From positions 80,912 to 144,911 of the forward strand of contig JAGOOP010000002.1 of NCBI GenBank assembly GCA_017992455.1: a stretch of DNA of 64,000 nt, in the 5' to 3' direction. The DNA comes from Candidatus Omnitrophota bacterium (lineage in GTDB: Bacteria; Omnitrophota; Gorgyraeia; Gygaellales; Profunditerraquicolaceae). A program made the translations under genes and the position numbers. Shown here piece by piece: positions 28,279 through 55,982 of this stretch; positions within the stretch are counted from its first letter, which is position 1, and each line of letters opens with the position of its first letter. The notes beneath the pieces were generated by a model. It saw only the letters and a program-made list of their open reading frames with translations. It had not been told where the DNA came from and did no database searches.

Positions 28279-29930
28279 TTCCTGTTTAATTCATGAGCCA
28301 GGCATCCCATATAGACCGAATTCGTGAATTTCCCGGCACGAAAGCACTCTTCCCTGATCAGCCCTTCTTTCTTGAATCCAACACGTTCGAACAGCTGGAT
28401 GGCCGCAATATTCTCTTGCTCCGTTCTCAAATAGACCTTATGCAGATTGAGCCTTGAGAAAGCATGATCTAATAACAGCCTCATGGCTTCGGCGGCAAAG
28501 CCTTTGCCATGGCTGTCTTTTTCACCCAATATTATGCCTAATTCGGCTTTGCGATAAAACCAGTCAATATTATGCAAGCCTAGATTCCCGATATGCCGAT
28601 CGCCTTTGCGGTCGATGATTGCCAGCACGATATCGTTCTCGCTTATCGTCATCTTGTCAAAAAAAGCCCGCATTCTTGCTTCGGAATTAGGGAAACTGCC
28701 GTTCTTCATGTACCTGGTGATGTCCTGGTCATTAAACCATTGAAAATAATCGCCGTTCAGGTCAGCAAGCTCAAGCCCCCGGAGATAACACTTTTCCCCG
28801 ATTAAAAAAGGATGGTGCAGTTTTTTATCCATCTTCCCCTCTTTGTTTATAAGATCAGATATCAATGTGTCGATCCGACGGCACGCATTGCCGTCAGATA
28901 AGAGCCAATCCGGGGCAGGCCGCATAAATCCGGAAGCGATCTCCCTGCGAATGCATAAATAAAGCTGCTGGGCGCACGTAATTATAGGGTAGCCTGCCTT
29001 TCGAGTCAATACATTTAAGTCTCTGCCCGGGACCAGATTCGGCTGAATGCTGAAAACGGGGATCCCCAGAGCTGCGGAAAAGATCAAAAGCGTGCTTGTC
29101 ATGCTCACGGCAAAATCGGAAATTATCAGGAGATCGTCAGGGTTCGCACGGTTCGTAAAAACAACCCCTTTCGCATCTTTCTTATTCAGGAAAGCAGACC
29201 TGCCGCGGGGATGCTCTTTAAAAACGGCTTTCAGGCGGATTTCACTGCGCAGGGATTTGATCGCATCGAAGAAAACAGGCAGAACATCCCTTTCATCATA
29301 GCCGAGATATTTATCCGGATAGAATTTTGATACCGGATGAGCATAGAATATAATGGCTATATCCTTCGGGCCGATCCCGTATTTTCTCCTCAGACGATCA
29401 CGGTAAGATTTCGTGCTTCTTCTTCTGCGTATTTTGTTCACGGCATCAAACTTGGGATGGCCGGTAATATGACATTTGTCGCACGGCACGCCTTCGGATA
29501 CCATTTCCGCCAGGGCTATTCGATCCATAACCGCTATTTTATCCGGAAGGAATCCGAAAGGATCGCCCGTAACAGGATCGTACAATCTGTCCGAATAATT
29601 CATCCAGGAATCTAAAATCGACAGCACGGGTATGGCATATTCTTTCCCCGCCTTGATCAAGCTATAATCAATATTGTTTTTTTCTCCAAGCAAACCCGTA
29701 ACAATGGCGTCTGGTCTGAACTTTTCAAGTATCGATCTGCATGACGCCGAACAATCCCCTGTAATTATTTTTTTGTCCGGAAGGAACTCATTATTGGCAA
29801 AAACAAGCGCGGCGTTCCTGCCGGCCATCGTAAATAAATTGTGCTTGTGTTTTTTTAAACGATTGATGACCGGCATAAGACAATCCGCGCCGCCCGCTTC
29901 GCTCGTTCCGAATAATACCTTATATCTCAT
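28275..29930 (-). CDS. Fusion protein: N-terminal GT-B-like domain with an xHP motif plus C-terminal GNAT (RimJ/RimL-type) N-acetyltransferase
   Basis: 551 aa. The N-terminal domain has FKEHPRGRS ... SMTSTLLIFSAALGIPVFS. The C-terminal roughly 170 aa read IGNLGLHNIDWFYRKAELGIILGEKDSHGKGFAAEAMRLLLDHAF...ENIAAIQLFERVGFKKEG. Confidence 0.6.
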   Translation of the reverse strand: MRYKVLFGTSEAGGADCLMPVINRLKKHKHNLFTMAGRNAALVFANNEFLPDKKIITGDCSASCRSILEKFRPDAIVTGLLGEKNNIDYSLIKAGKEYAIPVLSILDSWMNYSDRLYDPVTGDPFGFLPDKIAVMDRIALAEMVSEGVPCDKCHITGHPKFDAVNKIRRRRSTKSYRDRLRRKYGIGPKDIAIIFYAHPVSKFYPDKYLGYDERDVLPVFFDAIKSLRSEIRLKAVFKEHPRGRSAFLNKKDAKGVVFTNRANPDDLLIISDFAVSMTSTLLIFSAALGIPVFSIQPNLVPGRDLNVLTRKAGYPIITCAQQLYLCIRREIASGFMRPAPDWLLSDGNACRRIDTLISDLINKEGKMDKKLHHPFLIGEKCYLRGLELADLNGDYFQWFNDQDITRYMKNGSFPNSEARMRAFFDKMTISENDIVLAIIDRKGDRHIGNLGLHNIDWFYRKAELGIILGEKDSHGKGFAAEAMRLLLDHAFSRLNLHKVYLRTEQENIAAIQLFERVGFKKEGLIREECFRAGKFTNSVYMGCLAHELNRK

Positions 29931-31219
29931 ATTTCATTTCTCAGGCTCATTAATTCATCCCGGTGATCGATCACTTTCTGTATCGCATCGATCACAAGAT
30001 CCATGTCAGACTCAGTGTTCGGCCAGCGCACTAACGTTTCGATAAAAAAAGAGGTTTCTTCGGAAGCTTCGGCCTTTGGACAGATACCTCTGGAATATTT
30101 CGTTTTTCCGTAATACGGCGGTTTACATTCGCCGCTCTTACCGGCATATTCGGACATGTGCTGGTAAATCGGCAGATAATACAGCGGAGATCCCCAACGC
30201 GAAAAAACAGGAATACCCTCCGCACGGATAGCTTTGGCAAACAGGTCCAGGGGTATTCCGGCCTTAACAGCATCGTAAGACATATGATATAAATAATACA
30301 CGTGCGTACAATCATCGGCGACAAAAGGCGGTTCGATAAAATCAAAGGTCGCTCTTATCCGCTTTGATAAATACTGCGCCAGCCTTTGCCGCCATTCGTT
30401 GAGCATCTTCAGCTTATTCAGCTGATGATACCCGACAGCCGCTTCCATTTCGGTCATGCGCAGATTAAGCCCAAGGATATCGAGCTCAGGCCGGTGAAAG
30501 CCGGCTGTACAGTTCTCGCCGTGATTCCGCACAAGACGCAACCGAAAAGCAAGCTCTTCATCATTCGTAACAGCTATTCCGCCCTCGCCCGTCTGAATGG
30601 TTTTATGGCAATTGAGGCTGAATACCCCTATATCTTCTATGCAGCCGGCAAACCTGCCTTTATACAGGGCTCCGGGCGATTGCGCGTTGTCCCCCAATAC
30701 AAAAAGTTTATGTTTACGCGCGATCTCCATTATCGGGTCCATGTCTGCAGGATGGCCGGCAAGATGTACCACAAAAATTGCCTTTGTGCGGGATGTAATA
30801 TGCTGCTCAACCGATACAGGATCTATATTCATGGTCTGAGGATCGATATCGGCAAAAATCGGGATTGCATTGTTGAAAAGAATGGCGGTCCCTGTAGCGC
30901 ACATGGTCAGTGGCGGCAAGATAACTTCGTCCCCCGGACCTGCGCCGCATGCCGAAACAGCAGCCATCAGCGCGCAGGTTGCCGAGTTCATGCTTACGGC
31001 GAACTTGACGCCGAAATAATCCTCCCACGCCCGCTCGAGCTTTTTTACTTTCGCCCCCCCCAGGAAACCGTCATTCGCAGCGCCGAGATACGCCGAAAGT
31101 ACGCCGCTGTTCAACACTTCCATCACTTCTTTTTTTTCGTTGTCGTCTATCGTATTGTAGGCCGGGAATTTCTTGCTGATGACCGGTTTACCGCCCAATA
31201 GAGCCAATGCGCCTTTCAC
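29927..31219 (-). CDS. DegT/DnrJ/EryC1/StrS-family aminotransferase (long form)
   Basis: 430 aa. GTG start at 31219 with GGAGG 5-6 nt upstream. Contains MNSATCALMAAVSACGAGPGDEVILPP and NCHKTIQTGEGGIAVTND. Confidence 0.85.
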   Translation of the reverse strand: MKGALALLGGKPVISKKFPAYNTIDDNEKKEVMEVLNSGVLSAYLGAANDGFLGGAKVKKLERAWEDYFGVKFAVSMNSATCALMAAVSACGAGPGDEVILPPLTMCATGTAILFNNAIPIFADIDPQTMNIDPVSVEQHITSRTKAIFVVHLAGHPADMDPIMEIARKHKLFVLGDNAQSPGALYKGRFAGCIEDIGVFSLNCHKTIQTGEGGIAVTNDEELAFRLRLVRNHGENCTAGFHRPELDILGLNLRMTEMEAAVGYHQLNKLKMLNEWRQRLAQYLSKRIRATFDFIEPPFVADDCTHVYYLYHMSYDAVKAGIPLDLFAKAIRAEGIPVFSRWGSPLYYLPIYQHMSEYAGKSGECKPPYYGKTKYSRGICPKAEASEETSFFIETLVRWPNTESDMDLVIDAIQKVIDHRDELMSLRNEI

Positions 31220-31233
31220 GATGACCTCCGGCT

Positions 31234-32982
31234 TTATGACACCTTCTCCCAGGAACTCTGTCTTCTTAAAGACAATCGCAATTTAGCGATGATCTTAATC
31301 GCCTGCAATGCATCTTCTCCGGAACACCTGACCATACCTGAGCCTTCCAGGGCATCAGTCAGGTTGCTGACAGCGTTCACCATATATTCACCGCGCTTAA
31401 TGTTAAACGGCATTGCCTTCTGAAGTTTCAGCTCCTGTATGCCGCTTTCATAAAGGCTGCGTCCGCTTTTATAAAATTCCGCTATCCGGTCGTTATCCGC
31501 CAGCCGTATCCTTCCTTTACAGCCCATAATATCGATTTCCGTCGTGAAATGACACCGATAATCGCCGCAGGTCAAATGAACCGTGATCCCATTGCAAAAA
31601 TTCAATATTCCGGAAATATTCGTATCCCCCGTGTCCAAAACCCGGCTGCCGGTCGCAATGACACTTTTTACATCGCCGAAAAGGTATCTTAAAATATCGA
31701 TCGCATGTGAACCGCTGTTGAAAATACCCTTACTGTAATGGTACCGCACCAGAAAAACCCTGCCGATGATATTTTTCCGCAGATTTTCTTTAAGTCCCTG
31801 GTAAACGTCAGAATACCGCATCCAGTGATTCACGGCCAGGATCACATTTTTTTTAAGGCAAAGATTTATAGTCTGTTCACCCGTCCGTACATCCCTTACG
31901 AACGGCTTTTCGCACAATATGGCCTTAACTCCGTGTTTTACACATAGCCTGACTATGCTTGCATGCGAGTCAACGGGCGTACAGACCGAAACAATCTCGG
32001 GCTTCGTTGTTTTAAGCATTACCTCCGGATCGGAAAAAACAGCGTTTATACCCCACTTTTTTTTAAAAAGTATTCTTTTCAACGGATCGGGGTCGCAGCC
32101 GGCAACCAGATGCGTTTGAGACCAGCGCATATACGCCCCGCTATGCGTATTGACGCCGGCCATTTTTTTGTCAAGATCATACAGGGAGCCGATATTCCCC
32201 AGGCCGATGACCGCAGCGCTGTGCTTATTTTGCCTGATTCTATTGTTGATCTTCATTATCTGAGGATTCTTTTTAAGAAAACGGACTATATCCTCCCCTG
32301 TAAAAAATTCCCCTTTTCGCATAAAATGAACAAATATCTTATTGATAACAACCAGATCTTCTTTTGTATCCAGGCATATCCTGATGCCCGGCCCGGCTAT
32401 GGATCTGTCGGCGGCCAGCGTCGCTGATGTAAAATCGGGCCGGGTATAAAACGGCTCGGTGACATGCTGTCTCAGCCACGGATCGTCTGCCAATTTATCC
32501 GCCTTTTGCAGAGACCTGGTATAAAAAACCTCTACATCCAGGCCGTTGGGAAAGCTTAATGCCGCATCGGCATCCTTTCCCCATTGAAAATTCTTAACGT
32601 AATCTGTTTTCGAGGCAAGAAAAAACCTGACCATTTTATCTATGATGCCGGGATCGCTGAACGGGCAGTCACCGGTTAAATGTACAACGATATCTAATCC
32701 TGCGCTCCTGGCTGCACCCAGAACCCTGGAAAGGACATCTTCTTCGCTGCCGCGATATGACCGCACCTTAAGTCTGCGGGCTAACGCGCATATCGGGTCA
32801 TCGGTCTTATGAACGGTGGTCGCGATTACAATCTCCGATACCATATCCGACCTTTTAACCCTTCTGATAAGCCATTCCAGTAACGGCCTCTTCAGTACCG
32901 GGGCCATTACTTTTCCCGGGAAACGGCTCGATGTCATTCTCGCAACGACGACAGCGCCTATTTTTAATTTCTTCTCGGACAT
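31234..32982 (-). CDS. Fusion protein: SpsF-type cytidylyltransferase (N-terminal) plus Gfo/Idh/MocA oxidoreductase (C-terminal)
   Basis: 582 aa. The N-terminal part reads IGAVVVARMTSSRFPGKVMAPVLKRPLLEWLIRRV...LTGDCPF. The C-terminal part reads AAVIGLGNIGS...IVSVCTPVDSH...ILCEKPF. Confidence 0.8.
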   Translation of the reverse strand: MSEKKLKIGAVVVARMTSSRFPGKVMAPVLKRPLLEWLIRRVKRSDMVSEIVIATTVHKTDDPICALARRLKVRSYRGSEEDVLSRVLGAARSAGLDIVVHLTGDCPFSDPGIIDKMVRFFLASKTDYVKNFQWGKDADAALSFPNGLDVEVFYTRSLQKADKLADDPWLRQHVTEPFYTRPDFTSATLAADRSIAGPGIRICLDTKEDLVVINKIFVHFMRKGEFFTGEDIVRFLKKNPQIMKINNRIRQNKHSAAVIGLGNIGSLYDLDKKMAGVNTHSGAYMRWSQTHLVAGCDPDPLKRILFKKKWGINAVFSDPEVMLKTTKPEIVSVCTPVDSHASIVRLCVKHGVKAILCEKPFVRDVRTGEQTINLCLKKNVILAVNHWMRYSDVYQGLKENLRKNIIGRVFLVRYHYSKGIFNSGSHAIDILRYLFGDVKSVIATGSRVLDTGDTNISGILNFCNGITVHLTCGDYRCHFTTEIDIMGCKGRIRLADNDRIAEFYKSGRSLYESGIQELKLQKAMPFNIKRGEYMVNAVSNLTDALEGSGMVRCSGEDALQAIKIIAKLRLSLRRQSSWEKVS

Positions 32983-32984
32983 AT

Positions 32985-34394
32985 CTAAATATTGAGATAT
33001 TTATGCATCAACGGTTCATATCGCTGCATAAGCGGCAGCAGCTCTTCACGCGCCTCAAGGGCTCCTATATACATCATGCCGGACTTTTCCCGGTAATCCC
33101 ACCAGTCATGCACGCTCCAATCACGGCAATGATCAAGCCTGGCCACCAGATAAGAAAGCTCGTTCAACCGTGACCAGTCGAACGAGAGATCGTCTATAGC
33201 GTATTTTTTTTTGGCAATATCCCAGTATGGCGTTGCCGGAAACGGAGTAAGGATGGAATTCCCGCCGGTCTGGATCTTTTTTTTAGAGAAATTGTCAAGC
33301 ATCGCCTCGTATGTAATCTTGATATCGTCTTCTGTCTCATTTGGATGGCCTATGATAAAATTCCCGCCGGCTTTCATGCCGCAGCCGAAACAAATATCAA
33401 TGGCTTTTTGGTTCGCCTCAGGAGTGATCCTTTCCCCTTTGTATATATTCAGCATCCTGCGGGAAAAAGACTCGAATCCGAACAGTACGCATTTTACGTT
33501 CATGCTCTTTAAAACTCGTATGATCTCTTCACTGACGCAATCCACCCTTCCGTATACCACAAATTCAAGATCGTTTATCGTATCGTTATTGATGATCAAC
33601 TCGGCCATTTTTTTCAGCCGGTCCGGAAAAAGCATCATTATGTCATCACGAAATACCACGGTGCGGGCCGCTGGATTTTTATTTTTGAGAGCGACCAGAT
33701 CTGCCACTACCCATTCGGGAGAATGCAGCCTGACCTTTCGCTCCCACAGCAGATAATTTACGCAGAAATCGCAATCGTAAGGGCAACCCCTGATAGTGAA
33801 GACCGCGGCAGGGGCGCGATCCGTAAAATAGTCCCTGTTGAATGAAGGTATTATATCGATGTTCCGGATTAATGTCCGGGGAGGATTGGATTTAAGCTCG
33901 GCGTCTGACCAAAAAGAGATCCCTGCAACCCCGTTCAAATCGACCGGCGCAAACCGGCCCCGAGAGGCAAGATAACTCAATTCAAGCAGGGTCAGTTCTC
34001 CTTCCCCTCTTACACCGATGGCGCCCCTGGGCAGCGTCCTGCCAAGACAGGAAACATGCGCTCCTCCAAGCAGCAGTTTGCTCGAAGGCGAGAGCCCGGA
34101 TAATTTATCAATAACGTCGAGTGCTTCGTTATAAACAACCGACACCGAGGAAATCCCAATAAGGTCATATTTGTTTTTTTTAACCGAATCGAAAAAAACA
34201 TTCCTGTTGAGGGTCGTAAAAGTATCAACGCGTACTTTCCCGCCGCTGTATTTCTCTACGAAAGATTTCAGTGCGCCTATGCCAAGCCCGATATCCGGCC
34301 GGTCAACACCCGTTCTCACACATTGATACAGGGCCAGCTTGATCGTTCTCGGGAAACGATACTCCGGCACCTCGGCTGCGTCTTCCCTATTCAC
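32985..34394 (-). CDS. B12-binding-domain radical SAM enzyme (class-B rSAM, methylase-like)
   Basis: 469 aa. GTG start. The N-terminal part is a cobalamin-binding-like Rossmann region (YDLIGISSVSVVYNEALDVI). The rSAM motif is RGCPYDCDFC. Confidence 0.75.
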   Translation of the reverse strand: MNREDAAEVPEYRFPRTIKLALYQCVRTGVDRPDIGLGIGALKSFVEKYSGGKVRVDTFTTLNRNVFFDSVKKNKYDLIGISSVSVVYNEALDVIDKLSGLSPSSKLLLGGAHVSCLGRTLPRGAIGVRGEGELTLLELSYLASRGRFAPVDLNGVAGISFWSDAELKSNPPRTLIRNIDIIPSFNRDYFTDRAPAAVFTIRGCPYDCDFCVNYLLWERKVRLHSPEWVVADLVALKNKNPAARTVVFRDDIMMLFPDRLKKMAELIINNDTINDLEFVVYGRVDCVSEEIIRVLKSMNVKCVLFGFESFSRRMLNIYKGERITPEANQKAIDICFGCGMKAGGNFIIGHPNETEDDIKITYEAMLDNFSKKKIQTGGNSILTPFPATPYWDIAKKKYAIDDLSFDWSRLNELSYLVARLDHCRDWSVHDWWDYREKSGMMYIGALEAREELLPLMQRYEPLMHKYLNI

Positions 34395-35520
34395 ATTTAT
34401 GCTCTGTCTTTTTGATCAGGTTCATCAGGTTTCTATACTTGCCGCTTGATTGCATGCGCGGGTCTTTATTGTTTTTCATAAGATAGCCCGCATAATGCTT
34501 TGCCTGCCGTACAACGGCTTGCACTATATATTCCTTATAATCTTTCAGTATATTATACTCGTCCGACCATAAACAGTTGCAGCCGGAACAGATCGTGCCG
34601 TTCTTCTCTATTTGAGAATAATCGCGGTCTAAATGAGCCCGGCGGAAAGCTTTGCTCTTCTTATTATTCCACATCCGGCGCAATGACGTGTTCCTGACGT
34701 TGCCGAGTGACCAGCGCACATCGAAATCTACGGGACAAAGACAGACCTCTCCGTCCCAGTTGACCGTGATGTCCTCCCAGGGAACGCGACAGACCGGCCA
34801 TTTGCTTTGGGGCAGGGGCTTCTGCAGGGATTTAAGATCGATCTGGGCAGCTGTGCCGGCTTCATTCAGCATGGTCAGCAGCGGGTTCAGGAATACTTTA
34901 TCAACCGGCAATAAATACATGTTCTTCTCGAAGCGCTTTGCGTATTTTTTAAACTCGTCCGTCATTACGGCGGATATACAGACGTGAGTATAATGGCCGT
35001 TCTGTTCGTTCATTTTAAGAAAACCCAGGATATTGCGCAAAACCGTGTCGTATTTCGCCCTGACCCTGATCTTCTCGTATATCGTTTTCGATATGCCTTC
35101 AAAACTGAAAACAACCCTGTCGAGCTTCAAATGGATCAGATCACTCGCCAGGGCCCTGGTCATCCTTGTACCGTTCGTAAGCAATGAAACATGGCATCCG
35201 CTTTTTTTTGCATAAGCCACCATATCGACTATTCTGGGGTGGAGCAACGGCTCTCCCTGGACATCTAAAGTTATAGCGCATCCTATCGGTCCTATTTCAT
35301 CGATGACTTTTTTATAAACCTTCCACTCCATCAACCCCCGCGTGCGCTTCATTTGTTCCTGTATGCAATGTATACAACGCAGATTGCACAGATTCGTGGG
35401 CTCAATATGGACATGCTGCGGGAAGAACGGGGCTGTATCGCTGATGTGCTGTATATATTCGAATTGATCTAAATACCGTTTTACCTGCCGGTAAAAATTA
35501 TCCGGTGGTGCCTGTTTCAT
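34387..35520 (-). CDS. Radical SAM / SPASM-domain enzyme
   Basis: About 377 aa. ATG at 35520, in a TGATG junction with the upstream gene. Contains EPTNLCNLRCIHC. C-terminal Cys clusters read CRVPW...GEVCLCPVDF...GTICSGCNC. Confidence 0.8.
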   Translation of the reverse strand: MKQAPPDNFYRQVKRYLDQFEYIQHISDTAPFFPQHVHIEPTNLCNLRCIHCIQEQMKRTRGLMEWKVYKKVIDEIGPIGCAITLDVQGEPLLHPRIVDMVAYAKKSGCHVSLLTNGTRMTRALASDLIHLKLDRVVFSFEGISKTIYEKIRVRAKYDTVLRNILGFLKMNEQNGHYTHVCISAVMTDEFKKYAKRFEKNMYLLPVDKVFLNPLLTMLNEAGTAAQIDLKSLQKPLPQSKWPVCRVPWEDITVNWDGEVCLCPVDFDVRWSLGNVRNTSLRRMWNNKKSKAFRRAHLDRDYSQIEKNGTICSGCNCLWSDEYNILKDYKEYIVQAVVRQAKHYAGYLMKNNKDPRMQSSGKYRNLMNLIKKTEHKCE

Positions 35521-36833
35521 CAAAGATCTCCTTCCGTATCGGATTTATGGCGTTTGAAAACATTCTGCGGAGGCATCCCCGACAAATATTTCTTTATATT
35601 TCCGTCCTTAAGCGCTTTACAGCAAACACCGCAGGCAGCGTCGAAAGCAGCGAGGGTCTTCTTTATATCCTGGGGTGTATGGGAAAAGGACATGTACTGA
35701 AGGCCTCCGATAAGTACCCCCCTGCTGACCGTTTCCTGGAAAAACAGGCCTTTCAATTCGTTGTACTCGCTGCCGTCCGGGGCGACAAAATCGATCCAGA
35801 ACTTGGGGCTCAATCCTTTGACCTTGATCCATTGCCCCAGGCGATGTTCATCGACGAGCGCCTGGGTCCCGTTCTTGAGCAGGTCGCCCATCTTCCAGAA
35901 TCGGTCCTGCACCCGTTTCTGCCTCATCAAAGAGATCGTGGACCTCGCAGCCGCAAGGGACAGGGTTTCGCCGCCGTATGTGGTCGAGAAGAACATCCGG
36001 CAGGCCTCCTTCATGATCTGCCTCCTGCCCACGAGCACGGAGATCGGCAGCCCGTTTGCCATGCCCTTGCCAAAGGTCGCCAGATCAGGCGTGATGCCGT
36101 AATATTCCTGGGCGCCGCCAAGGGCAAGTCTGAAGCCTGTGACGATCTCGTCAAAAATCAGCACGGCGCCGTTTTTGCGCGCGATCTGCTTCACCCGTGC
36201 CAGAAAACCGGGCTGCGGAAGCTCCACCGATACCGGCTCCATGATGACCGCTGCGATCCTGCGGGGATGCTCGGCAAATATTTTTTCAAGCGACGCGGGA
36301 TCGTTGTACGTAAAGGGATGAATGAGTTCTTTCATCGCGCGGGGCACACCGAGATCGTGTTCGGTGCTGGCGATATACCAGTCATGCCACCCGTGATACC
36401 CGCAGACCGCAACGTGCTCCCTGCCGGTATAAATCCTGCTCAGCCGGACGGCGGCAGACGTCGCGTCGGCGCCGTTTTTTGCGAACCGCGACATATCGGC
36501 GCACGGGATACACTCCCGCAAAAGCTCAGCCACCTCGACCTCGAGAACATTCATCAACGAAAAAGTGCTGCCTTTCTTCATTTGGTCGCATACCGCCCTG
36601 ACCGTCGCGGGATAATTGTAGCCGAGCGTCACCGGCCCGAGCGCAAGCGGATAATCGATGTACTCATTCCCGTCGACATCCCAGACATGGCTCCCCTGGC
36701 CATGGTCGAGATATATCGGATACACGCCAAATGTGAACATGTTCGGGCCTTTCGACAGCGTTTGTGTCCCCCCGGGGATCACCGTGAGGGCGCGCTTCCA
36801 GTACGCAAACGATTTCGCCAGGGATCTTTTCAC
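35520..36833 (-). CDS. Class-III PLP aminotransferase (glutamate-1-semialdehyde 2,1-aminomutase-like)
   Basis: 437 aa. GTG start with AGGAGG about 8 nt upstream. Contains GYHGWHDWY and FDEIVTGFRLALGGAQEYYGITPDLATFGKGMANGLP. Confidence 0.85.
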   Translation of the reverse strand: MKRSLAKSFAYWKRALTVIPGGTQTLSKGPNMFTFGVYPIYLDHGQGSHVWDVDGNEYIDYPLALGPVTLGYNYPATVRAVCDQMKKGSTFSLMNVLEVEVAELLRECIPCADMSRFAKNGADATSAAVRLSRIYTGREHVAVCGYHGWHDWYIASTEHDLGVPRAMKELIHPFTYNDPASLEKIFAEHPRRIAAVIMEPVSVELPQPGFLARVKQIARKNGAVLIFDEIVTGFRLALGGAQEYYGITPDLATFGKGMANGLPISVLVGRRQIMKEACRMFFSTTYGGETLSLAAARSTISLMRQKRVQDRFWKMGDLLKNGTQALVDEHRLGQWIKVKGLSPKFWIDFVAPDGSEYNELKGLFFQETVSRGVLIGGLQYMSFSHTPQDIKKTLAAFDAACGVCCKALKDGNIKKYLSGMPPQNVFKRHKSDTEGDL

Positions 36834-36845
36834 GGCACGTGCCTC

Positions 36846-37592
36846 CTATTTATCATCGATATTATAATTTTCATTGCGCGCGCGCGCGGCATTAAGCGCC
36901 CGGATATCCGGATGTGAACGCACATACGATATGATATCGCCGAGCCCAAAAAGACGCCCGCGCGCGCCAAGATCCTGAATAATGCGCTCGACAACGGCAA
37001 AATCCTCGGGAGCGTCCACCGTTAAACGAAACGACGAAAGGTCTTCATCACACGGCACATTCTCGCACCTGAACGCTTCCGGATGTTCAGTCATGAAGCT
37101 CGTCACGTGCTCGCGCTGATACTTGAACGCGGCCTCTTTCCACGCGCGAGAGAGCGCGTCGAAGGTGAACGCCTCCACATCCATGCCGTCAGGATATGTC
37201 GGCGGGTTCGTATTGGACGTATAATCCGCCGTATTTTCAACCGCAGCCCGGACAACCCGTTCGATGACCGCCGGATCGATGAGAGGGCAATCCCCGGTGA
37301 TCCGCACGATCCAGCGGCACGGAAATGCGAGAGCCGCCTGATAATATCGGTCAAGCACATCGCCCTCAGAACCCCGGAAGCAGGGTATATCGGCGAGGCG
37401 GCAAAAATCCTCGATCTCGTCATCTGCCGGCTCGACTGTCGTAGCCACGACGACGCCGTCGATCCCGCGCGCGGATCGGACGCGTTGCACCAAATACCAT
37501 AAGAGCGGCCGTCCGTTCACGGGCCTGAGCACTTTGCGCGGCAGGCGCGTTGACCCCATGCGGGCCTGGATAACTGCAAGCACATCGATCAT
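36846..37592 (-). CDS. SpsF-type cytidylyltransferase (candidate CMP-NulO synthetase of the Pse-type module)
   Basis: 248 aa. Contains VLAVIQARMGSTRLPRKVLRPVNGRPLLWYLVQRV...ITGDCPLID. Confidence 0.8.
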   Translation of the reverse strand: MIDVLAVIQARMGSTRLPRKVLRPVNGRPLLWYLVQRVRSARGIDGVVVATTVEPADDEIEDFCRLADIPCFRGSEGDVLDRYYQAALAFPCRWIVRITGDCPLIDPAVIERVVRAAVENTADYTSNTNPPTYPDGMDVEAFTFDALSRAWKEAAFKYQREHVTSFMTEHPEAFRCENVPCDEDLSSFRLTVDAPEDFAVVERIIQDLGARGRLFGLGDIISYVRSHPDIRALNAARARNENYNIDDK

Positions 37593-38596
37593 TCCCAGTC
37601 TACCTTTACATGTTTCATGCGTTCGGAAGAACGGCGGGCCGCAAGAACGAGCCGCAGGACCTTGAGCGACAGGGACAGGGGGTTCACCGTCTCTCTGCGA
37701 ATGCGGATACAGTGTTCGAAGTGAAGAAGCTCCTCGATGTAACTCCGGCCGTATCCGGACCCCCGGGGCTCGCGCTCGATGCGCGGCCGCCTGCCCTTGA
37801 GTGACACGCGAATCTTCGCTTCACGTTCATCCCAGGCAATGGTGCCCCGTTCGCCGGCAATGACGCATCCGCGCGTGTACTCCCTGTTCAAATAATCCAG
37901 ATGGATCTCGCCGATAGCGCCGTCGTCAAAGCGGATAGTCACTGCGGCGTTATCTTCACAGGTCACCCGCAGCAGCCCCGACGTCGCTGCCATGGCCGAG
38001 ATCGACACGGGCTTGCCCGGCATCAAATCAAGCAGGTAATCGAACTCATGGACCGCATCGAGCATCACGCCGCCTCCCGATGATCCCGAAGCGCTGTACG
38101 TCTTTGTATAATCCCTGCCCGGCCGCCAGTCAGGGAGATACTGGCCGAAATAACACCGTATAGAAAAAACCCTGCCGACAAGGGCCGAAAGCTGTCTCAG
38201 CCGCTTGAGCCCGTACTGGAACCTCATATTGCATCCGACCATCGTGATCAGCTTCCGGACGGCCGCCTCGCGGCGCAGGAGGCCGATGCCGGCGATCTGA
38301 TGCGAAAGCGGCTTTTCTATGAACAGATGCATTCCCCGGCGCGCACACGCCAGAGCTGCCGGGATATGCGAATTCGTCGGGGTGCAGATAAGCGCCGCTC
38401 CGGCGCATTCGGCAGGCATCGCTTTCAGATCGCTGTAAACGCTCACGCCCGGAAAGATCCTTTTTACTTTTCTTCGGATCGATGGGGACGGATCGACGAC
38501 AACAACGCCGCGGCCCAGCGCGACCAGATTCCTGATATGGCGCCCGCCGATCGATCCGGCGCCGATAACCGCATACGTAAGCTTCGGTCCCGTCAT
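37589..38596 (-). CDS. Gfo/Idh/MocA-family NAD(P)-dependent oxidoreductase
   Basis: 335 aa. Contains YAVIGAGSIGGRHIRNL, LICTPTNSH and LFIEKPL. Confidence 0.85.
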   Translation of the reverse strand: MTGPKLTYAVIGAGSIGGRHIRNLVALGRGVVVVDPSPSIRRKVKRIFPGVSVYSDLKAMPAECAGAALICTPTNSHIPAALACARRGMHLFIEKPLSHQIAGIGLLRREAAVRKLITMVGCNMRFQYGLKRLRQLSALVGRVFSIRCYFGQYLPDWRPGRDYTKTYSASGSSGGGVMLDAVHEFDYLLDLMPGKPVSISAMAATSGLLRVTCEDNAAVTIRFDDGAIGEIHLDYLNREYTRGCVIAGERGTIAWDEREAKIRVSLKGRRPRIEREPRGSGYGRSYIEELLHFEHCIRIRRETVNPLSLSLKVLRLVLAARRSSERMKHVKVDWE

Positions 38597-39672
38597 CGCA
38601 CCATCCTCAAGGTGATCTGCCTGTCCGCCTTAACATCCTTCAACAGCCTTTTTCCGGTCAGCATGGCCAAGTCCCGCGGCCGCAGGCCGGTGCCGGGACG
38701 CTTTAAACACATATCGGACATCGTCAGGATATGGCCCTTCTTGAGGTTTTTCCCCGCGACGATCGAGCGGCGGAACATACGGCGCATCTTGACCTCGGTC
38801 GCTGACGGCCTGAGTGCGGGGCTGCCCATCATCTTTTCAAGCGCGCGGATCTGGCGCACCAGCATCGCGAATTCCGCCGGGTCTGACGACAGAAAATGGT
38901 CGGGGCCGCGCATGTTCCGGTCAAGCGTAAAATGTTTCTCGATCACCTTTGCGCCCAGGGCCACCGCGCCCAGCGCTGCCGTTATTCCCGGGGCATGGTC
39001 AGAATACCCGACGATGGCGCGCGTCCTGGCGGCAAGCGTCTTCATGCGCAGTAAATTGACCTCTTCCTCAGGGGCCGGATATACGGAAACGCAATGCAAA
39101 AAGATCGCGTCCCGACAGCGGCGCGCGCGCAATATCGCAAGCGCGTCGTCTATTTCCTCCTCATCGGCCATGCCCGTTGACAGGATCAGAGGCAGTCCCG
39201 TTCCGGCCGCATATTCGATCAAGGGCAGGTTGATGAGGTCTTCGGAACTCAGCTTAAGAGCGGGAACCCCGATCCTGCGCACGGCATCCGCGCTCTGCCG
39301 ATCGGCGACCGACGTAAGCGGCACGATCTTTTTCCTTCGACAATGGTCGAAGAGCGGCTTATGCCAACCCAGAGGCAGCTCCAGCCTCCGGAACATATCG
39401 AACATATTTTCCCGGACGGACCGGCCGCCTGCCTTATATTCATACACCAGGGACCTGTCAGCCAGGAATTCCCCCGTGCGGAAGGTCTGGAATTTGACGC
39501 AGTCTGCGCCGGAGGATGCCGCCGCATCGATCAATTTCCGCGCAATGCGCAGATCTCCGTTATGATTCACCCCGATCTCGGCGATGATAAAAACAGGATG
39601 GCCTTTTCCGATTGCCCTGTGCCCGATAAGAACGTTGCCGTTTAACTGTGCGTCGACCGCGCGCCCTGACAT
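38593..39672 (-). CDS. NeuB-family nonulosonic acid synthase with C-terminal SAF domain (PseI/LegI/NeuB-like)
   Basis: Trimmed to the ATG at 39672. Contains PVFIIAEIGVNHNGDL, VKFQTF, ILSTGM and GYSDH. The SAF-like tail reads RRSIVAGKNLKKGHILT..DMCLKRPGTGL. From motifs alone I cannot tell Pse, Leg and Neu specificity apart. Confidence 0.85.
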   Translation of the reverse strand: MSGRAVDAQLNGNVLIGHRAIGKGHPVFIIAEIGVNHNGDLRIARKLIDAAASSGADCVKFQTFRTGEFLADRSLVYEYKAGGRSVRENMFDMFRRLELPLGWHKPLFDHCRRKKIVPLTSVADRQSADAVRRIGVPALKLSSEDLINLPLIEYAAGTGLPLILSTGMADEEEIDDALAILRARRCRDAIFLHCVSVYPAPEEEVNLLRMKTLAARTRAIVGYSDHAPGITAALGAVALGAKVIEKHFTLDRNMRGPDHFLSSDPAEFAMLVRQIRALEKMMGSPALRPSATEVKMRRMFRRSIVAGKNLKKGHILTMSDMCLKRPGTGLRPRDLAMLTGKRLLKDVKADRQITLRMVR

Positions 39673-40400
39673 ATTTCTTCCCTCGTCACATTGCCCTGTA
39701 AACATATGTGCCTGCTCTCCGGCCCGTGATTGAACAATAGATCGACAAACGAAAGGTTCGGGACAAATCCGCCGTACTGCTGACTATACCGGGGATGATG
39801 GTAATCCTGAAAGACGACTTTGATGTTGTTCCGTTCGAACTTTGCCGTATCGATATAGTCCCTGCCGAATATGCCGGTCACCACGATATCAGCCTTATAC
39901 CGGGCGCCGTGTTCCAGGACAAGATCGGATTTGACGCCGATAAATCCTTCCTGCGAACCAATGACAAGCTTCGGTCTCAGATCGAACCATTCAAAGACCT
40001 GCTTCAGGATCGCGAGGTTCAGATCGGAGAGCCGTTTCCACTGCTTACCCAGATACAGCCATTCGAAGAACGGCTTATATTTGCCGAAGAACGGCGCGCG
40101 CGTATACGCCATCCGCAGACTCGCCCAGTGCACCGCCTGCCACCGAGACTTTTCGGCTACATGCTCTTGCCCCGAAATAAGGATATCCTGCAGCCTGTCG
40201 GAGGCCGAATGCTTCAGATCCACAGGGACGGTAAGCCAGATCGCTTTCCCCTGCGGCGATTTTATCATATTACGATTGTTCCAGTCCTGCGTCAGATACT
40301 GGACATCGTCCATAAAAACGAACACGTCGCAGAGACTCGCCTTATGGATCAATCCGAGCCACGGCAGGTACACAGGCTGATGGCCGCTGACAATGACCAT
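39642..40400 (-). CDS. WbqC-like family protein (function unknown, associated with O-antigen/NulO loci)
   Basis: 252 aa. Contains SGHQPVYLPWLGLIHKASLCDVFVFMDDVQY...DWNNRN. Confidence 0.75.
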   Translation of the reverse strand: MVIVSGHQPVYLPWLGLIHKASLCDVFVFMDDVQYLTQDWNNRNMIKSPQGKAIWLTVPVDLKHSASDRLQDILISGQEHVAEKSRWQAVHWASLRMAYTRAPFFGKYKPFFEWLYLGKQWKRLSDLNLAILKQVFEWFDLRPKLVIGSQEGFIGVKSDLVLEHGARYKADIVVTGIFGRDYIDTAKFERNNIKVVFQDYHHPRYSQQYGGFVPNLSFVDLLFNHGPESRHICLQGNVTREEICQGARSTHS

Positions 40401-40404
40401 ACCA

Positions 40405-41232
40405 TTAACCCCGTATAAGGGATAAAAAATTCAAAGCGAATATCCTCTTTTCAGCCGCCGCTCCCAGCTTCAATGCCCTGATAGAACGCAGGACCTGGCT
40501 TTGCCTGTGGCTGTGATTGAAAGGGAAATCAGATCCGAAAACGATCTTGCCCGCCAGGCCGGCGTCGATATTCAATTTTACCATTCTGATAGTGGCCGAT
40601 ACCGCGGTATCGAACCATACGTTGGCCAGGATTTCGGCCACAGGTGGATAAAGCGCATAGATGCCTGCCATGCCTCCGAGGTGAGCGGCCAGGATCCTCG
40701 TGTCGGGATGAGCAGCGGCCAGCTTGCACAGATGGCCGGCTGAGGAATCGGATATCTTGAAGGCATGGTCGACATGGACCATGAGGAATGCGCGCCGGTC
40801 ACGGACGAAATCCGCAAGATCATGGACAGCAGGATCGTCGAGAGAATATCCCTGCCATACCGGATTGATCTTGATGCCCGCCGCACCCGCGGCCAGACAT
40901 CGCTGCGCCTCGAGCTTCCACGCTTTTGCGCGCGGCTGTACCGAACAAACTGCCAGAAAATCGCGGTTCAGGCGCGACGCCTCGAGGATGAAATCGTTGT
41001 TCTCCCGGCATAACGCGGGGCTGCGCCAGGGCAAAGAGACTAACGCAGACCTGTCTATAGCCGACCGCCTCATGGATGCCACGATCATTTCCGGGCACGC
41101 AAGTCCCAGCGCATACGCGCCCTGCGGATGGCGGTACAAGGCATTCGAGATAAGCGCCTCCTGCAACGGGAGACGCACATTCGGGTCCCGCAGGCGGTCC
41201 GGAAGGCAGTATACATGGGCATCTATGATCAT
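40405..41232 (-). CDS. Amidohydrolase-2 (PF04909-like) metal-dependent hydrolase
   Basis: 275 aa. Starts MIIDAHVY, then VHVDH and a final FGSDFPF block, as in TIM-barrel amidohydrolases. Confidence 0.6.
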   Translation of the reverse strand: MIIDAHVYCLPDRLRDPNVRLPLQEALISNALYRHPQGAYALGLACPEMIVASMRRSAIDRSALVSLPWRSPALCRENNDFILEASRLNRDFLAVCSVQPRAKAWKLEAQRCLAAGAAGIKINPVWQGYSLDDPAVHDLADFVRDRRAFLMVHVDHAFKISDSSAGHLCKLAAAHPDTRILAAHLGGMAGIYALYPPVAEILANVWFDTAVSATIRMVKLNIDAGLAGKIVFGSDFPFNHSHRQSQVLRSIRALKLGAAAEKRIFALNFLSLIRG

Positions 41233-42947: not shown

Positions 42948-43732
42948 TCTCCCGACCCGTTCTTTCTCAAAACATTCTGCAGGCGCCCGCATAAGAGCGG
43001 ATCGCAGATGGCTGCCCTGCCGATACCCACCGACCCCGCTCCTGCGCGCAATACCCTGCACGCGCTGTCCTCGTCCGCGATCCCGCCGCTCGCAATGACA
43101 AAAGACGAGAAACGAGATATCTCATGTAACGCCTCAAGCCCCGGCGAACCCTGTTCCGAAGACCCGCAATCTATGTGAATAATGCATTCACCGGCACCGG
43201 TGATCACGCCGGCTGCCTGGACCGTGTCCGGCGTATCATGAACGCCTACCTTGAAGATGACAGGGACCTTGACCGAATAAATCATGGCACGGGCCCATGC
43301 CAGCAAATGTCCGTGATTGCGCCTTAGACACAATGCAGCGCTCGTACCTGTACTCGTGAAGACATCGTAGGTCGAATGCAGGCATACTGCGACGAACCGG
43401 GCGCCTGCGGCTTCAGCCGCCGCGCAGAAATCTGCCGTTTCGGAAATATCGACAGCGGCAACGCTCACCCCTACGGCTGCGCGGCTCTGACGCGCAGCGC
43501 GGATCTCATCCCGAAGGAATCCGCCGTAACCCCTGTCGCCCTGCACGATGAAAAAATCATCGGCATACGCCGCGGGCTTGTCCGGCGCGATGATGTATGT
43601 CCCGAGCATAACCAATGCTGCTCCGGCGCCGTGGCGTGCGCAAAAAGCCCCGTTGCCGTATCCGGCCAATTCCGAGAGGACGACCCCGTTACGGATCAGC
43701 TCATATGAAGAGCCGTGATCTATGCGAGCCAT
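42944..43732 (-). CDS. TIM-barrel protein of uncertain function (DUS/DHOD-like FMN-oxidoreductase fold suspected)
   Basis: 262 aa. Contains VPVIFKV, IHIDCGS and ASGGIADEDSACRVLRAGAGSVGIGRA, which resembles phosphate/FMN-binding barrel ends. The assignment is weak. Confidence 0.35.
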   Translation of the reverse strand: MARIDHGSSYELIRNGVVLSELAGYGNGAFCARHGAGAALVMLGTYIIAPDKPAAYADDFFIVQGDRGYGGFLRDEIRAARQSRAAVGVSVAAVDISETADFCAAAEAAGARFVAVCLHSTYDVFTSTGTSAALCLRRNHGHLLAWARAMIYSVKVPVIFKVGVHDTPDTVQAAGVITGAGECIIHIDCGSSEQGSPGLEALHEISRFSSFVIASGGIADEDSACRVLRAGAGSVGIGRAAICDPLLCGRLQNVLRKNGSGE

Positions 43733-44625: not shown

Positions 44626-44633
44626 GGTGCCGG

Positions 44634-48340: not shown

Positions 48341-48352
48341 ATCGCCTCATGG

Positions 48353-51058: not shown

Positions 51059-51062
51059 CCGA

Positions 51063-53765
<2,703 letters not shown>

Positions 53766-55717: not shown

Positions 55718-55727
55718 GGCAGTACTC

Positions 55728-55982
55728 CTATTTTTTATAGCGAAAATACAGGATGAACGCAGCAGCAAGGACCAGGAGAGTCACGGTATTGGCGCTGATG
55801 ATGACGATGTTCTTCAGATGCACTCCGTACGACACCCACAGGGATATCCCCACCGCGAACTGGATGAGCGCGAGCAGGCTGATATCCTGCACTGACTTTG
55901 TCTTATATATCTTTATCACCTGCGGAACGAACCCGAACGACGTCAAAAGCGCTGCGCCAAACCCCACGATTTCCCAGTACAT
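55728..55982 (-). CDS. SemiSWEET (PQ-loop) sugar transporter, 3-TM half-transporter
   Basis: 84 aa with three TM helices and a PQ motif in TM1 (SFGFVPQVIKIYKTKSVQDIS). It closely resembles characterised bacterial SemiSWEETs. Confidence 0.88.
   Translation of the reverse strand: MYWEIVGFGAALLTSFGFVPQVIKIYKTKSVQDISLLALIQFAVGISLWVSYGVHLKNIVIISANTVTLLVLAAAFILYFRYKK

Follow-up and report, generated by a model that had tools for sequence, protein, structure and literature searches.

The window analysed here, a stretch of 64,000 nucleotides from a Candidatus Omnitrophica MAG, carries a surface-glycan locus of about 60 kb on one strand; all genes named below lie on the minus strand. Three of them overlap, at the coordinates given by the original prediction: a class-III (GSA-aminomutase-like) PLP aminotransferase gene (35520-36833, 437 aa), a twitch/SPASM radical SAM gene (34387-35520, 377 aa) and a B12-domain radical SAM gene (32985-34394, 469 aa, GTG start). 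At the first junction, GGAGATCTTTGATGAAA, the TGA of the aminotransferase gene overlaps the ATG of the SPASM gene (at 35520) by 1 nt (TGATG), with GGAGG about 8 nt upstream of that ATG; an alternative TTG start at 35523 gives a longer ORF of 378 aa (34387-35523). At the second, AAATGTGAATAGGG, the B12 gene begins with GTG within the SPASM gene, overlapping it by 8 nt. Pfam domains and motifs agree with the three gene identities first proposed, and since the HMM matches are strong and the operon is tightly packed (gene spacing −121 to +14 nt), the arrangement is not due to chance.

PseB, an inverting UDP-GlcNAc 4,6-dehydratase (46477-47454; TIGR03589, 482.8 bits, cut-off 407.75), and the aminotransferase PseC (45317-46597; TIGR03588, 508 bits, cut-off 423.5) both exceed their NCBIfam cut-offs. 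For this reason, the nonulosonic acid (NulO) locus that had been predicted is, judged by its genes, specifically a pseudaminic acid (Pse) locus, expected to make a heavily tailored Pse-type NulO. The PseC ORF overlaps PseB by 121 nt, so its true start is probably further downstream. Then come a PIG-L/LmbE-family de-N-acetylase (44634-45320; Pfam E 1.5e-27), a PseG-like UDP-sugar hydrolase fused to a class-I methyltransferase (41229-43061; TIGR03590, 150.3 bits against a cut-off of 153.55, plus methyltransferase domains), Amidohydro_2 (40405-41232) and WbqC-like (39642-40400) proteins assigned by Pfam, and a NeuB-family nonulosonic acid synthase with a SAF domain in the PseI role (38593-39705; Pfam NeuB E 2e-81), which stays below the NCBIfam cut-offs for both NeuB (359 bits, 400) and PseI (286 bits, 340). 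The cytidylyltransferase and oxidoreductase genes said to flank the trio are likewise present: a GFO/IDH/MocA oxidoreductase (37589-38596; Pfam) and an SpsF/PseF-like cytidylyltransferase (CTP_transf_3; 36846-37592; Pfam E 1.2e-33) precede it, and the radical SAM pair is followed directly by a CTP_transf_3-GFO/IDH/MocA fusion (31234-32982; Pfam). A DegT-family sugar aminotransferase, the second after PseC (29927-31219; Pfam E 2.5e-82; below the PseC and LegC cut-offs), is followed by a protein with an N-terminal domain of unassigned type and a C-terminal GNAT N-acetyltransferase domain (28275-29930; Acetyltransf_3 E 3.8e-26), whose similarity to PseH is weak (45.5 bits vs 93).

Like the PseB-PseC-PseH-PseG-PseI-PseF pathway of Campylobacter and Helicobacter, the window thus holds PseB and PseC equivalogs together with a PseG-like domain, a GNAT protein, a NeuB-family synthase and CTP_transf_3 in one operon. 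Unlike that pathway, its synthase and cytidylyltransferase score below the PseI and PseF cut-offs, and about ten extra genes are interleaved, namely PIG-L, WbqC, Amidohydro_2, GFO, the class-III aminotransferase, two radical SAM genes, the CTP/GFO fusion and the second DegT gene.

The aminotransferase of the trio (Pfam Aminotran_3, E 6.5e-49) belongs to a different context from the two radical SAM enzymes. It scores 427 bits with NF004856 (cut-off 486) and only 255 bits with the HemL model TIGR00713, far below its cut-off of 527; among its solved non-HemL relatives, the sugar and polyketide transaminases reach 130-155 bits, though true GSA aminomutases are still the top matches at about 200 bits. 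The migration of an amino group suggested originally is therefore unlikely on these scores. In homologs with about 55% identity, the aminotransferase is joined to CTP_transf_3 in one protein, and sequence comparison identifies an oxidoreductase, a PseF-like cytidylyltransferase and a class-III aminotransferase as a widespread accessory module of Pse loci, which occurs without any radical SAM gene and often with the aminotransferase fused to the cytidylyltransferase. In loci L168 and L169, GFO homologs (41% identical) lie directly upstream of such fusions; loci L020 and L022 lack GFO and carry an aldo/keto reductase (AKR) directly upstream of the cytidylyltransferase-aminotransferase pair. Replacement of an NAD-dependent oxidoreductase by the radical SAM enzyme was considered, and these GFO-less loci speak against it: a conventional redox enzyme accompanies the aminotransferase in every case, to which the radical enzyme is an addition. 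Polar-flagellin glycosylation islands of Aeromonas group I have the order pseB-pseC-aldo/keto reductase-pseF-class III aminotransferase-pseG... (PMC7874193), the same insertion of oxidoreductase, PseF and class-III aminotransferase in a Pse locus, with its GFO version in L168, L169 and the window and its AKR version in L020 and L022. Unlike the window, the Aeromonas islands are without radical SAM genes.

Base composition divides the trio at the same place. The aminotransferase gene (GC 0.564, GC3 0.708) is the last of a higher-GC Pse block, and the GC break falls exactly at its junction with the SPASM gene, showing that two blocks of differing composition meet there; locus L170 (40% GC), with the same gene order, is uniform and has no such break. 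Because the aminotransferase module exists without radical SAM genes and composition changes at the junction, the trio is two modules rather than a single functional unit.

The pair keeps company with NulO genes in other genomes, a co-occurrence that now extends to relatives of both proteins. Neighbourhoods were counted in loci of at least 8 kb, one genome per species, with NeuB scored within 10 kb. Relatives of the SPASM protein with at least 38% identity had NeuB in 4 of 5 loci, and the fifth contains PseB and CTP_transf_3 besides aminotransferases; in the 30-38% identity band NeuB was present in 9/20, and below 30% in 12/40, against 0/43 for unrelated class-B radical SAM genes. The B12 clade is rare, with about six representative clusters above 440 bits before a plateau at or below 367 in an exhaustive profile search, and 7 of its 8 contexts are NulO loci (the window, L170, L003, L007, L088, L006 and the P0006 contig), the L006 member adjoining Maf and flagellin genes.

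Gene order is conserved as well. L170 has an identical order of 17 genes, with the trio 71-76% identical; the order is CTP3-AT3-SPASM-B12-CTP/GFO in L171, CTP3-AT3-SPASM in the JGI contig and AKR-CTP3-AT3-SPASM in the Lachnospiraceae and Flavonifractor loci, so that the twitch gene directly follows the aminotransferase gene in distant phyla. The CTP_transf_3-GFO fusion stands beside SPASM homologs in L003, L008, L009, L010, L170, L171 and the JGI contig, and the DegT protein is 63-71% identical in L003, L008 and L009. PIG-L homologs (45-47% identical; L006, L007, L008, L011, L012, L088) recur beside radical SAM genes, the WbqC-like/Amidohydro_2 pair is kept with NeuB in L003, L007, L010, L011, L012 and L170, and the GNAT protein corresponds to two separate genes in L003. 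As two radical enzymes with no described role recur in such clusters of distant bacteria, they probably make a modified form of this surface sugar; a literature search found no paper linking radical SAM enzymes to nonulosonic acids. On this sequence evidence, we consider it reasonably probable that the pair tailors a Pse-type sugar by radical chemistry not described before.

The stage of that tailoring can be approached through gene fusions. For GFO, class-III aminotransferase and SPASM radical SAM alike, some lineage carries a fusion with a CTP_transf_3 domain, so these three tailoring types probably work when the sugar is activated with CMP or immediately afterwards. In NCBIfam TIGR04321 (spiro-SPASM, an uncharacterised spirochaete family), the cytidylyltransferase 36846-37592 matches the N-terminal part of the model and the SPASM protein the C-terminal part, which implies a natural fusion of the two functions, although neither window protein is a member at scores of 26 and 63 bits against a cut-off of 250. 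An earlier substrate, at the UDP-hexose stage and not CMP-Pse, is suggested by L007 and L088, where PseB and PseC enclose the B12 gene and the SPASM gene comes after PIG-L.

The SPASM protein matches Pfam Radical_SAM (E 4e-20) and SPASM (E 7e-15) and has the predicted CNLRCIHC motif, whereas the C-terminal cysteine clusters claimed for it resolve into four invariant residues among 30 relatives (C244, C262, C311, C314). These align with the C...C...CxxC of BtrN, and by sequence the protein is a BtrN-like twitch enzyme with one auxiliary cluster, not one with the 7-Cys SPASM motif. BtrN is also the best PDB match of the family profile (E 2.9e-18) and of an AF2 model (pLDDT 88.9, with N- and C-terminal helical extensions) in Foldseek (4m7t, E 1.9e-12), with DesII, SuiB, anSME and BlsE close behind. 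BtrN oxidises 2-deoxy-scyllo-inosamine in the butirosin pathway, between two transaminations, and the window SPASM gene is likewise flanked by two aminotransferase genes. Unlike BtrN, the protein has 377 aa rather than about 250, shares about 17% identity with it and stands in a different gene context; identity of the pair to any characterised radical SAM enzyme is 14-20%. By analogy, the BtrN likeness points to alcohol oxidation as a first guess.

The B12 enzyme passes the Pfam B12-binding cut-off (PF02310, 38.9 bits against 32.1), matches Radical_SAM (E 2e-15) and carries RGCPYDCDFC. It shares with the class-B enzymes an N-terminal Rossmann B12-type domain and a CxxxCxxC radical SAM core, and its confident AF2 model (pLDDT 91.2) superposes on MgmA, TsrM, OxsB, AprD4, CysS and TokK; cobalamin binding and methylation are here predicted. 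Unlike those enzymes, to which it is 16-20% identical, it reaches no NCBIfam family and belongs to a NulO-associated clade. The original step from class-B membership to methylation holds in that the fold is mostly one of methylases (4 of the 6 closest solved relatives, the C-methylase MgmA best) and fails in that AprD4 and OxsB are equally close; methylation is thus a plurality guess from the model.

In the reading we prefer, PseB, PseC, the PseG-like domain and the NeuB-family synthase supply the nine-carbon sugar, as their scores and synteny show. In the manner of BtrN, the twitch enzyme would use a 5'-deoxyadenosyl radical to take hydrogen from a carbinol position of the Pse skeleton (C4 or C8) or from the matching carbon of a UDP-hexose precursor; its auxiliary cluster would accept the electron, leaving a ketone. 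The class-III aminotransferase or the second DegT enzyme might then transaminate this ketone, with N-acetylation to follow, or it might be reduced again to give an epimer. This analogy is tentative. Equally provisional is the suggestion that the B12 enzyme might use methylcobalamin to methylate an unactivated carbon, either in the same sugar or in its N-acyl group; GenK and Fom3 are examples of C-methylation by cobalamin radical SAM enzymes, and the Fom3 substrate is CMP-linked. The product would be an extra-aminated and/or C-methylated Pse derivative not previously described. Oxidation followed by transamination of ulosonic or nucleotide sugars is known from KdnB/KdnA (Kdo8N) and WbpB/WbpE, where an oxidoreductase and an aminotransferase, with or without an acetyltransferase, turn a sugar hydroxyl into an (acetyl)amino group; unlike the window enzymes, these come from different families. 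To our knowledge, no radical SAM step occurs in those systems or in 8-amino NulO systems. An 8-amino NulO is present in the Flexibacter maritimus O-antigen (PMC3210612), so a triamino NulO is natural, known as a structure without a gene link.

Other outcomes of the radical chemistry are conceivable for each enzyme. The twitch enzyme might instead be a carbohydrate epimerase, returning hydrogen to the opposite face, or a DesII-like lyase eliminating a neighbouring amine; the Pse-type sugar would then emerge as a stereoisomer or in a deoxy form. An aminoglycoside sugar is epimerised by the radical SAM enzyme NeoN, which sets a precedent; Foldseek ranks DesII (E 1e-10) and the epimerase EpeE (E 3e-8) not far behind BtrN; and with an aldo/keto or GFO oxidoreductase already beside the aminotransferase a further dehydrogenase is not obviously needed. 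An extra cysteine, C181, is 97% conserved in the close clade, yet it is Ser in Firmicutes and Kordiimonas relatives; the invariant cysteines match the ligands of BtrN's auxiliary cluster, an electron sink in dehydrogenases, and profile and fold both rank BtrN first, which makes the epimerase or lyase unlikely. Somewhat less unlikely is that the B12 enzyme is no methyltransferase and instead acts on the sugar without cobalamin or by rearrangement, comparable to AprD4, a sugar 1,2-diol dehydratase solved with paromamine, or the ring contraction of OxsB. Both have Foldseek E-values in the methylase range, AprD4 is the second-best sequence match, NCBIfam similarities spread over cyclases, HpnJ and others, and the locus already has many class-I methyltransferases. 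The AprD4 match, however, covers the radical SAM core only, whereas the N-terminal domain aligns in sequence with the cobalamin domains of CysS and TokK.

Neither is the substrate necessarily Pse itself. The pair would act on another glycan component, an amino sugar of the repeat unit or an aminocyclitol made through the IolG-like GFO oxidoreductases, if its closeness to Pse genes merely reflected a shared locus. Both GFO proteins match inositol 2-dehydrogenase best (95 and 83 bits), the BtrN substrate is an aminocyclitol, L009 lacks NeuB within 10 kb, and the one exceptional B12-clade context, L172, is an amino-sugar locus (DegT, WecF-like transferase) with no visible NeuB. Such a role seems improbable, as the iolG scores lie far under the 355 cut-off, the SPASM gene adjoins PseF-like, aminotransferase or NeuB genes across phyla in otherwise differing loci, and several loci are compact flagellin-glycosylation islands with little besides Pse genes. 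That both proteins are peptide (RiPP) maturases placed in a glycan locus by chance is very improbable indeed. In NCBIfam, the B12 enzyme most resembles the RiPP enzyme ApyD, several SPASM matches are peptide maturases and SuiB is second in fold, but every score is far below its cut-off (93 vs 750 for ApyD, 106 vs 380), so that neither protein falls in an established non-glycan family, and the full 7-Cys motif typical of many maturases is absent. Gaps of at most 14 nt between genes from 20.6 to 47.5 kb leave no room for a small precursor ORF, all neighbours are sugar enzymes, and in other genomes it is NeuB/Pse genes that are conserved beside the pair, rather than peptide or transporter genes.

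Both additional radical SAM genes reported for the window are real and match SPASM. The one at 47513-48340 encodes a second twitch enzyme of BtrN size (275 aa; CNKNCWMC and C...C...CxxC), which is 22% identical to the SPASM protein of the trio and has the same invariant cysteines. The other (14024-15106; Pfam Radical_SAM and SPASM), a third SPASM-type enzyme that reaches no NCBIfam cut-off, has methyltransferase genes around it and belongs to the distal glycan part of the locus.

Almost every gene of the window is on the minus strand, and together these make up a single glycan locus, about 60 kb long, that contains the predicted gene trio. The trio's three open reading frames were found on that strand exactly where they had been placed, and encode a class-III aminotransferase (35520–36833; Aminotran_3, E 6.5e-49), an enzyme with Radical_SAM and SPASM domains (34387–35523, counted from an alternative TTG start; 34387–35520 otherwise) and an enzyme with B12-binding and Radical_SAM domains (32985–34394). 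As read from the sequence, the aminotransferase/SPASM junction GGAGATCTTTGATGAAA has the next ATG overlapped by the stop codon TGA, with a Shine-Dalgarno sequence upstream, and at the SPASM/B12 junction AAATGTGAATAG the B12 gene starts with a GTG 8 nt within the preceding gene. Members of the radical SAM superfamily carry CxxxCxxC in a partial TIM-barrel core matching PF04055; both proteins pass this model (57.7 and 73.1 bits vs 29.5), and their relatives keep the motifs CPYDCDFC and CNLRCIHC without exception. The flanking cytidylyltransferase and oxidoreductase genes, as well as the two additional radical SAM genes of the window, are likewise real. The observation behind the original prediction is confirmed, and its interpretation, namely C-methylation, epimerisation or amino-group migration in a sugar pathway, is partly supported.

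The locus begins with GDP-mannose genes and a short set of NeuB, CTP_transf_3 (a PseF/SpsF-like cytidylyltransferase) and a class-IV aminotransferase, followed by PseB, PseC, PIG-L, GNAT, a TIM-barrel protein, a PseG-like/methyltransferase protein, Amidohydro_2, WbqC, NeuB with a SAF domain, a GFO/IDH/MocA oxidoreductase (GFO), CTP_transf_3 and the trio. Thereafter come a CTP_transf_3–GFO fusion (31234–32982), DegT, a protein combining a domain of no known family with GNAT, two proteins of no assigned family, a Wzx flippase, methyltransferases, glycosyltransferases and the initiating transferase. PseB and PseC reach equivalog level in NCBIfam (482.8 bits vs a cut-off of 407.75, and 508 vs 423.5), and the PseG-like domain is borderline (150.3 vs 153.55); the locus is therefore of the pseudaminic-acid (Pse) type. 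The models for PseH (45.5 vs 93), PseF (26.7 vs 205.7), PseI (285.8 vs 340) and NeuB (358.6 vs 399.65) were not reached, and family-level domains for the PseG, PseH, PseI and PseF roles are all present. We describe this as a Pse-locus variant, new as such, whose twitch radical SAM enzyme is conserved and uncharacterised and has a rare partner with a B12 domain.

The SPASM subfamily proper, with two auxiliary 4Fe-4S clusters, is recognised by the 7-Cys motif CX9-15GX4C ... CX2CX5CX3C ... C. The full motif is absent from the SPASM enzyme, in which CX5CX3C was not found. Across 30 relatives the only invariant C-terminal cysteines are C244, C262, C311 and C314, spaced as C244-X12-G-X4-C262 and C311-X2-C314, with C316 conserved in 77%; all four are still invariant in a set enlarged by relatives from Firmicutes and alphaproteobacteria and by the window's second small radical SAM protein. 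They match one-to-one, in a HMMER alignment, the C...C...CxxC of BtrN, the four cysteines in an abridged SPASM domain that define the twitch subfamily with its one auxiliary cluster. BtrN is also the top PDB match of the family profile (E 2.9e-18) and the top Foldseek match of the AF2 model (pLDDT 88.9; E 1.9e-12), followed by SuiB, DesII, anSME and BlsE. Judged by profile and predicted fold, the enzyme is BtrN-like. An orthologue of BtrN would be expected in an aminoglycoside (2-deoxystreptamine) gene context and with close sequence similarity; here identity is about 17%, the context is Pse/NeuB, and no 2-DOI synthase occurs among the neighbouring genes. The twitch enzyme is distributed among Omnitrophota, Desulfovibrionaceae, Lachnospiraceae, Oscillospiraceae, alphaproteobacteria and others, and the SPASM family gives roughly 900 hits. 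Cultured bacteria among the carriers are Desulfonatronum thiosulfatophilum, whose orthologue (P0084) shares 50% identity, Lachnospiraceae strain X68 (L022), Kordiimonas laminariae and K. gwangyangensis (L042, L053). In an uncultured bacterium (L057, 4678–7709), three tandem SPASM-family paralogs, 23–30% identical to the window protein, are situated about 4 kb away from a NeuB homolog.

The B12 enzyme has the architecture of class B, a B12-binding Rossmann domain N-terminal to the radical SAM core (PF02310, 38.9 bits vs 32.1). Searched exhaustively with a profile, 1.84 billion representatives yielded six clusters at 443–706 bits and then a plateau at no more than 367 bits, and the clade is therefore rare. 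Scanning metagenomes with the B12 profile gained one true clade member (L088) and otherwise mostly unrelated class-B enzymes of 22–32% identity, which served as a negative control.

Gene neighbourhoods were compared to see whether the link to nonulosonic acids (NulO) recurs. Relatives of the B12 enzyme at 32–37% identity have the following contexts. In GCA_005801265.1 (L003/L004) the order is Amidohydro_2-WbqC-CTP_transf_3/GFO fusion-DegT-unknown-GNAT-SPASM-B12, with NeuB further along; L007 and L088 show PseB-B12-DegT-PIG-L-SPASM with NeuB-WbqC-Amidohydro_2 close by, and L006 shows PIG-L-B12-CTP_transf_3-SDR-Maf-flagellin. The contig carrying clade member P0006 has the B12 gene and then Amidohydro_2-WbqC-NeuB further along, and L172 has an amino-sugar context in which NeuB is not visible. 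Searching with the aminotransferase led to closer relatives, namely to L170, which preserves the 17-gene order of the window (trio 71–76% identical), to L171, with CTP_transf_3-aminotransferase-SPASM-B12-CTP_transf_3/GFO and a B12 enzyme only about 24–28% identical, and to a JGI contig with CTP_transf_3-aminotransferase-SPASM-formyltransferase-CTP_transf_3/GFO-DegT. When window proteins were searched by tblastn against 80 one-per-species genome loci picked by SPASM similarity, NeuB lay within 10 kb in 4/5 loci at a SPASM identity of 38% or more, in 9/20 at 30–38% and in 12/40 below 30%; the fifth locus of the closest class has PseB, CTP_transf_3 and aminotransferases. Near the unrelated class-B radical SAM genes of the metagenome scan, NeuB was found in 0/43. 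These counts speak against a lack of co-occurrence with NulO genes, which would have told against the original prediction. A strict pairing of the B12 and SPASM genes was rejected: the P0006 contig lacks SPASM in its visible 11 kb, which is interrupted by an IS element, and L172 lacks both SPASM and NeuB.

The trio itself resolves into two modules rather than one functional unit, since the aminotransferase module occurs without radical SAM genes and GC drops at its SPASM junction. Relatives of the aminotransferase number in the thousands, many at about 55% identity being fused to a CTP_transf_3 (SpsF-like) domain. Two loci with the fused form (L168, L169) are plain Pse islands, PseB-PseC-PseG-PseH-PseI-(methyltransferase)-GFO-[CTP_transf_3/aminotransferase], both without radical SAM genes and one of them adjoining flagellin genes. 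A like insertion, pseC-aldo/keto reductase-pseF-class III aminotransferase-pseG, is listed with function unknown in a survey of Aeromonas flagellin glycosylation islands (PMC7874193), and the aminotransferase is part of this PseF-associated module already noticed in the literature. A role as HemL, which would require scores above the TIGR00713 and NF000818 cut-offs, was rejected (254.6 vs 527.3 and 258.8 vs 398; glycan-gene context); the nearest NCBIfam model is NF004856 (427.5 vs 486). Among proteins P0243–P0308, SpsF/PseF-like cytidylyltransferases are fused to many of the "glutamate-1-semialdehyde aminomutase" homologs, in Pse islands near flagellin genes, and our literature search found no paper tying glutamate-1-semialdehyde enzymes to flagellin glycosylation. 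HemL-style annotation of the whole NF004856/PRK06209-type family is probably misleading. Pse loci commonly contain such "GSA-aminomutase" genes, which are PseF partners, often PseF-fused, and not heme enzymes.

Window GC falls right where the aminotransferase and SPASM genes meet, near 35520, from 0.53–0.60 (GC3 0.60–0.72) in the block from PseB to the aminotransferase to 0.45–0.50 (GC3 0.52–0.58) from SPASM to Wzx; the compositional break is listed for 23975–36833 vs 36846–47454. With the syntenic relative L170 (40% GC) uniform in composition, this sharp break suggests replacement of the distal half of the locus from a lower-GC donor.

What the two radical enzymes do has to be weighed against several alternatives. 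Peptide maturation would call for an adjoining precursor-peptide gene, together with a maturase-family match at equivalog level. Intergenic gaps from 20.6 to 47.5 kb span −121 to +14 nt, so that no precursor-peptide gene fits between the genes there, and all neighbours are sugar enzymes. The best NCBIfam scores are far under their cut-offs, 93 vs 750 bits for the B12 enzyme (ApyD) and 106 vs 380 for the SPASM enzyme (tungsten-enzyme maturase); neither a known non-glycan family nor a peptide gene was thus found, and the maturase reading was rejected. By analogy with BtrN and NeoA, the twitch enzyme was also considered as a substitute for the NAD-dependent GFO redox partner; GFO was indeed not found within 10 kb in Firmicutes CTP_transf_3-aminotransferase-SPASM loci, even at E 1e-3. 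The idea is nevertheless not supported: Pfam assignment of unassigned ORFs in L022 and L020 places an aldo/keto reductase immediately upstream of CTP_transf_3-aminotransferase, as in Aeromonas, so the aminotransferase keeps a conventional redox partner throughout, to which the radical enzyme is added. As for the reaction itself, the likeness to BtrN makes a dehydrogenase a tentative assignment that we rate slightly short of an even chance, its main rival being an epimerase or lyase reaction; C181 was rejected as the hydrogen donor of an epimerase, its conservation being confined to the close clade. The modelled B12 enzyme (pLDDT 91.2) matches the folds of MgmA, TsrM, OxsB, AprD4, CysS and TokK at 16–20% identity and may be a C-methylase, a reading we regard as possible rather than probable. 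The main rival is a non-methylating class-B reaction; AprD4 has the same fold and does not use cobalamin, but at the sequence level its match covers the core only, and the N-terminal domain aligns with the cobalamin domains of CysS and TokK.

Fusions to CTP_transf_3 are seen for GFO, the aminotransferase and a SPASM-type domain alike: the first in the window's own fusion gene, the second among relatives of the aminotransferase, the third in the NCBIfam spiro-SPASM model, whose N-terminal part is matched by the CTP_transf_3 protein and C-terminal part by the SPASM protein. These fusions suggest that all three may act at or just after CMP activation, although the gene order of L007 and L088 argues for the UDP-hexose stage instead. 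The order GFO-CTP_transf_3-aminotransferase-SPASM-B12-CTP_transf_3/GFO-DegT-GNAT fits a scheme in which hydroxyl groups are converted to (acetyl)amines in two rounds, with a BtrN-like radical oxidation placed between the transaminations, and methylation is added. A known 8-amino nonulosonic acid is that of Flexibacter maritimus (PMC3210612). Taken jointly, and with confidence that stops a little below the halfway mark, these may be the first radical SAM enzymes of NulO biosynthesis: the BtrN-like one would oxidise or epimerise a carbinol of a CMP- or UDP-bound Pse intermediate, and the rare, putatively cobalamin-dependent one would C-methylate the sugar or its N-acyl group. With two oxidoreductase/aminotransferase sets, the product would be a Pse derivative of undescribed kind, e.g., C-methylated and with three or four amino groups, which anaerobes of several phyla would display on their cell surface or flagella.

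Bacteria display pseudaminic and legionaminic acids on flagella, capsules and O-antigens, where these sugars influence motility as well as phage and immune recognition. To our knowledge, many "Pse derivatives" detected by mass spectrometry are structurally unsolved, and radical SAM carbohydrate chemistry has so far come mainly from aminoglycoside and nucleoside antibiotics. The conserved, putative radical SAM step, to which some loci add the rare B12 partner, offers concrete candidate genes for such derivatives and, if true, would extend this chemistry to primary cell-surface glycans. Our literature search found no paper combining radical SAM and nonulosonic acids, nor any on radical SAM with flagellin, glycan or cobalamin, and a paper on Leptospira NulO does not mention such genes; the sole related trace is MoaA/NifB/PqqE-type radical SAM genes, function unannotated, among the phase-variable genes of Campylobacter fetus.

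Several other features of the locus deserve mention, all on the minus strand. The WbqC-like and Amidohydro_2 genes (39642–41232) form a conserved pair adjoining the NeuB-family synthase, also in L003, L007, L010–L012 and L170; a literature search on WbqC found nothing functional. In a second ulosonic-acid-like module (47513–51764), CTP_transf_3 and a NeuB that is short and lacks SAF are accompanied by a methyltransferase, a class-IV aminotransferase and a twitch radical SAM protein of BtrN's size (275 aa); the module's NeuB and aminotransferase are 60% and 70% identical to L003 genes, which there accompany SIS, AP_endonuc_2 and SDR genes. At 6227–10485, a TPP-dependent E1 dehydrogenase alpha/beta pair adjoins DegT, a class I/II aminotransferase and the initiating Bac_transf gene, and this group, unusual for a glycan locus, may serve to make an acyl or branched substituent. 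Taken as longest ORFs, three genes run into their upstream neighbour by 117–330 nt (45317–46597/46477–47454, 41229–43061/42944–43732 and 49321–50541/50210–51058); PseC, the PseG-methyltransferase fusion and the 406-aa methyltransferase probably start further downstream than these coordinates show. Finally, where window GC is lowest (0.449), still within the glycan locus, a 627-aa ORF (53885–55768) pairs a LAGLIDADG_3 homing-endonuclease-like domain (residues 292–354) with a Peptidase_C1 domain of the papain family (409–584).
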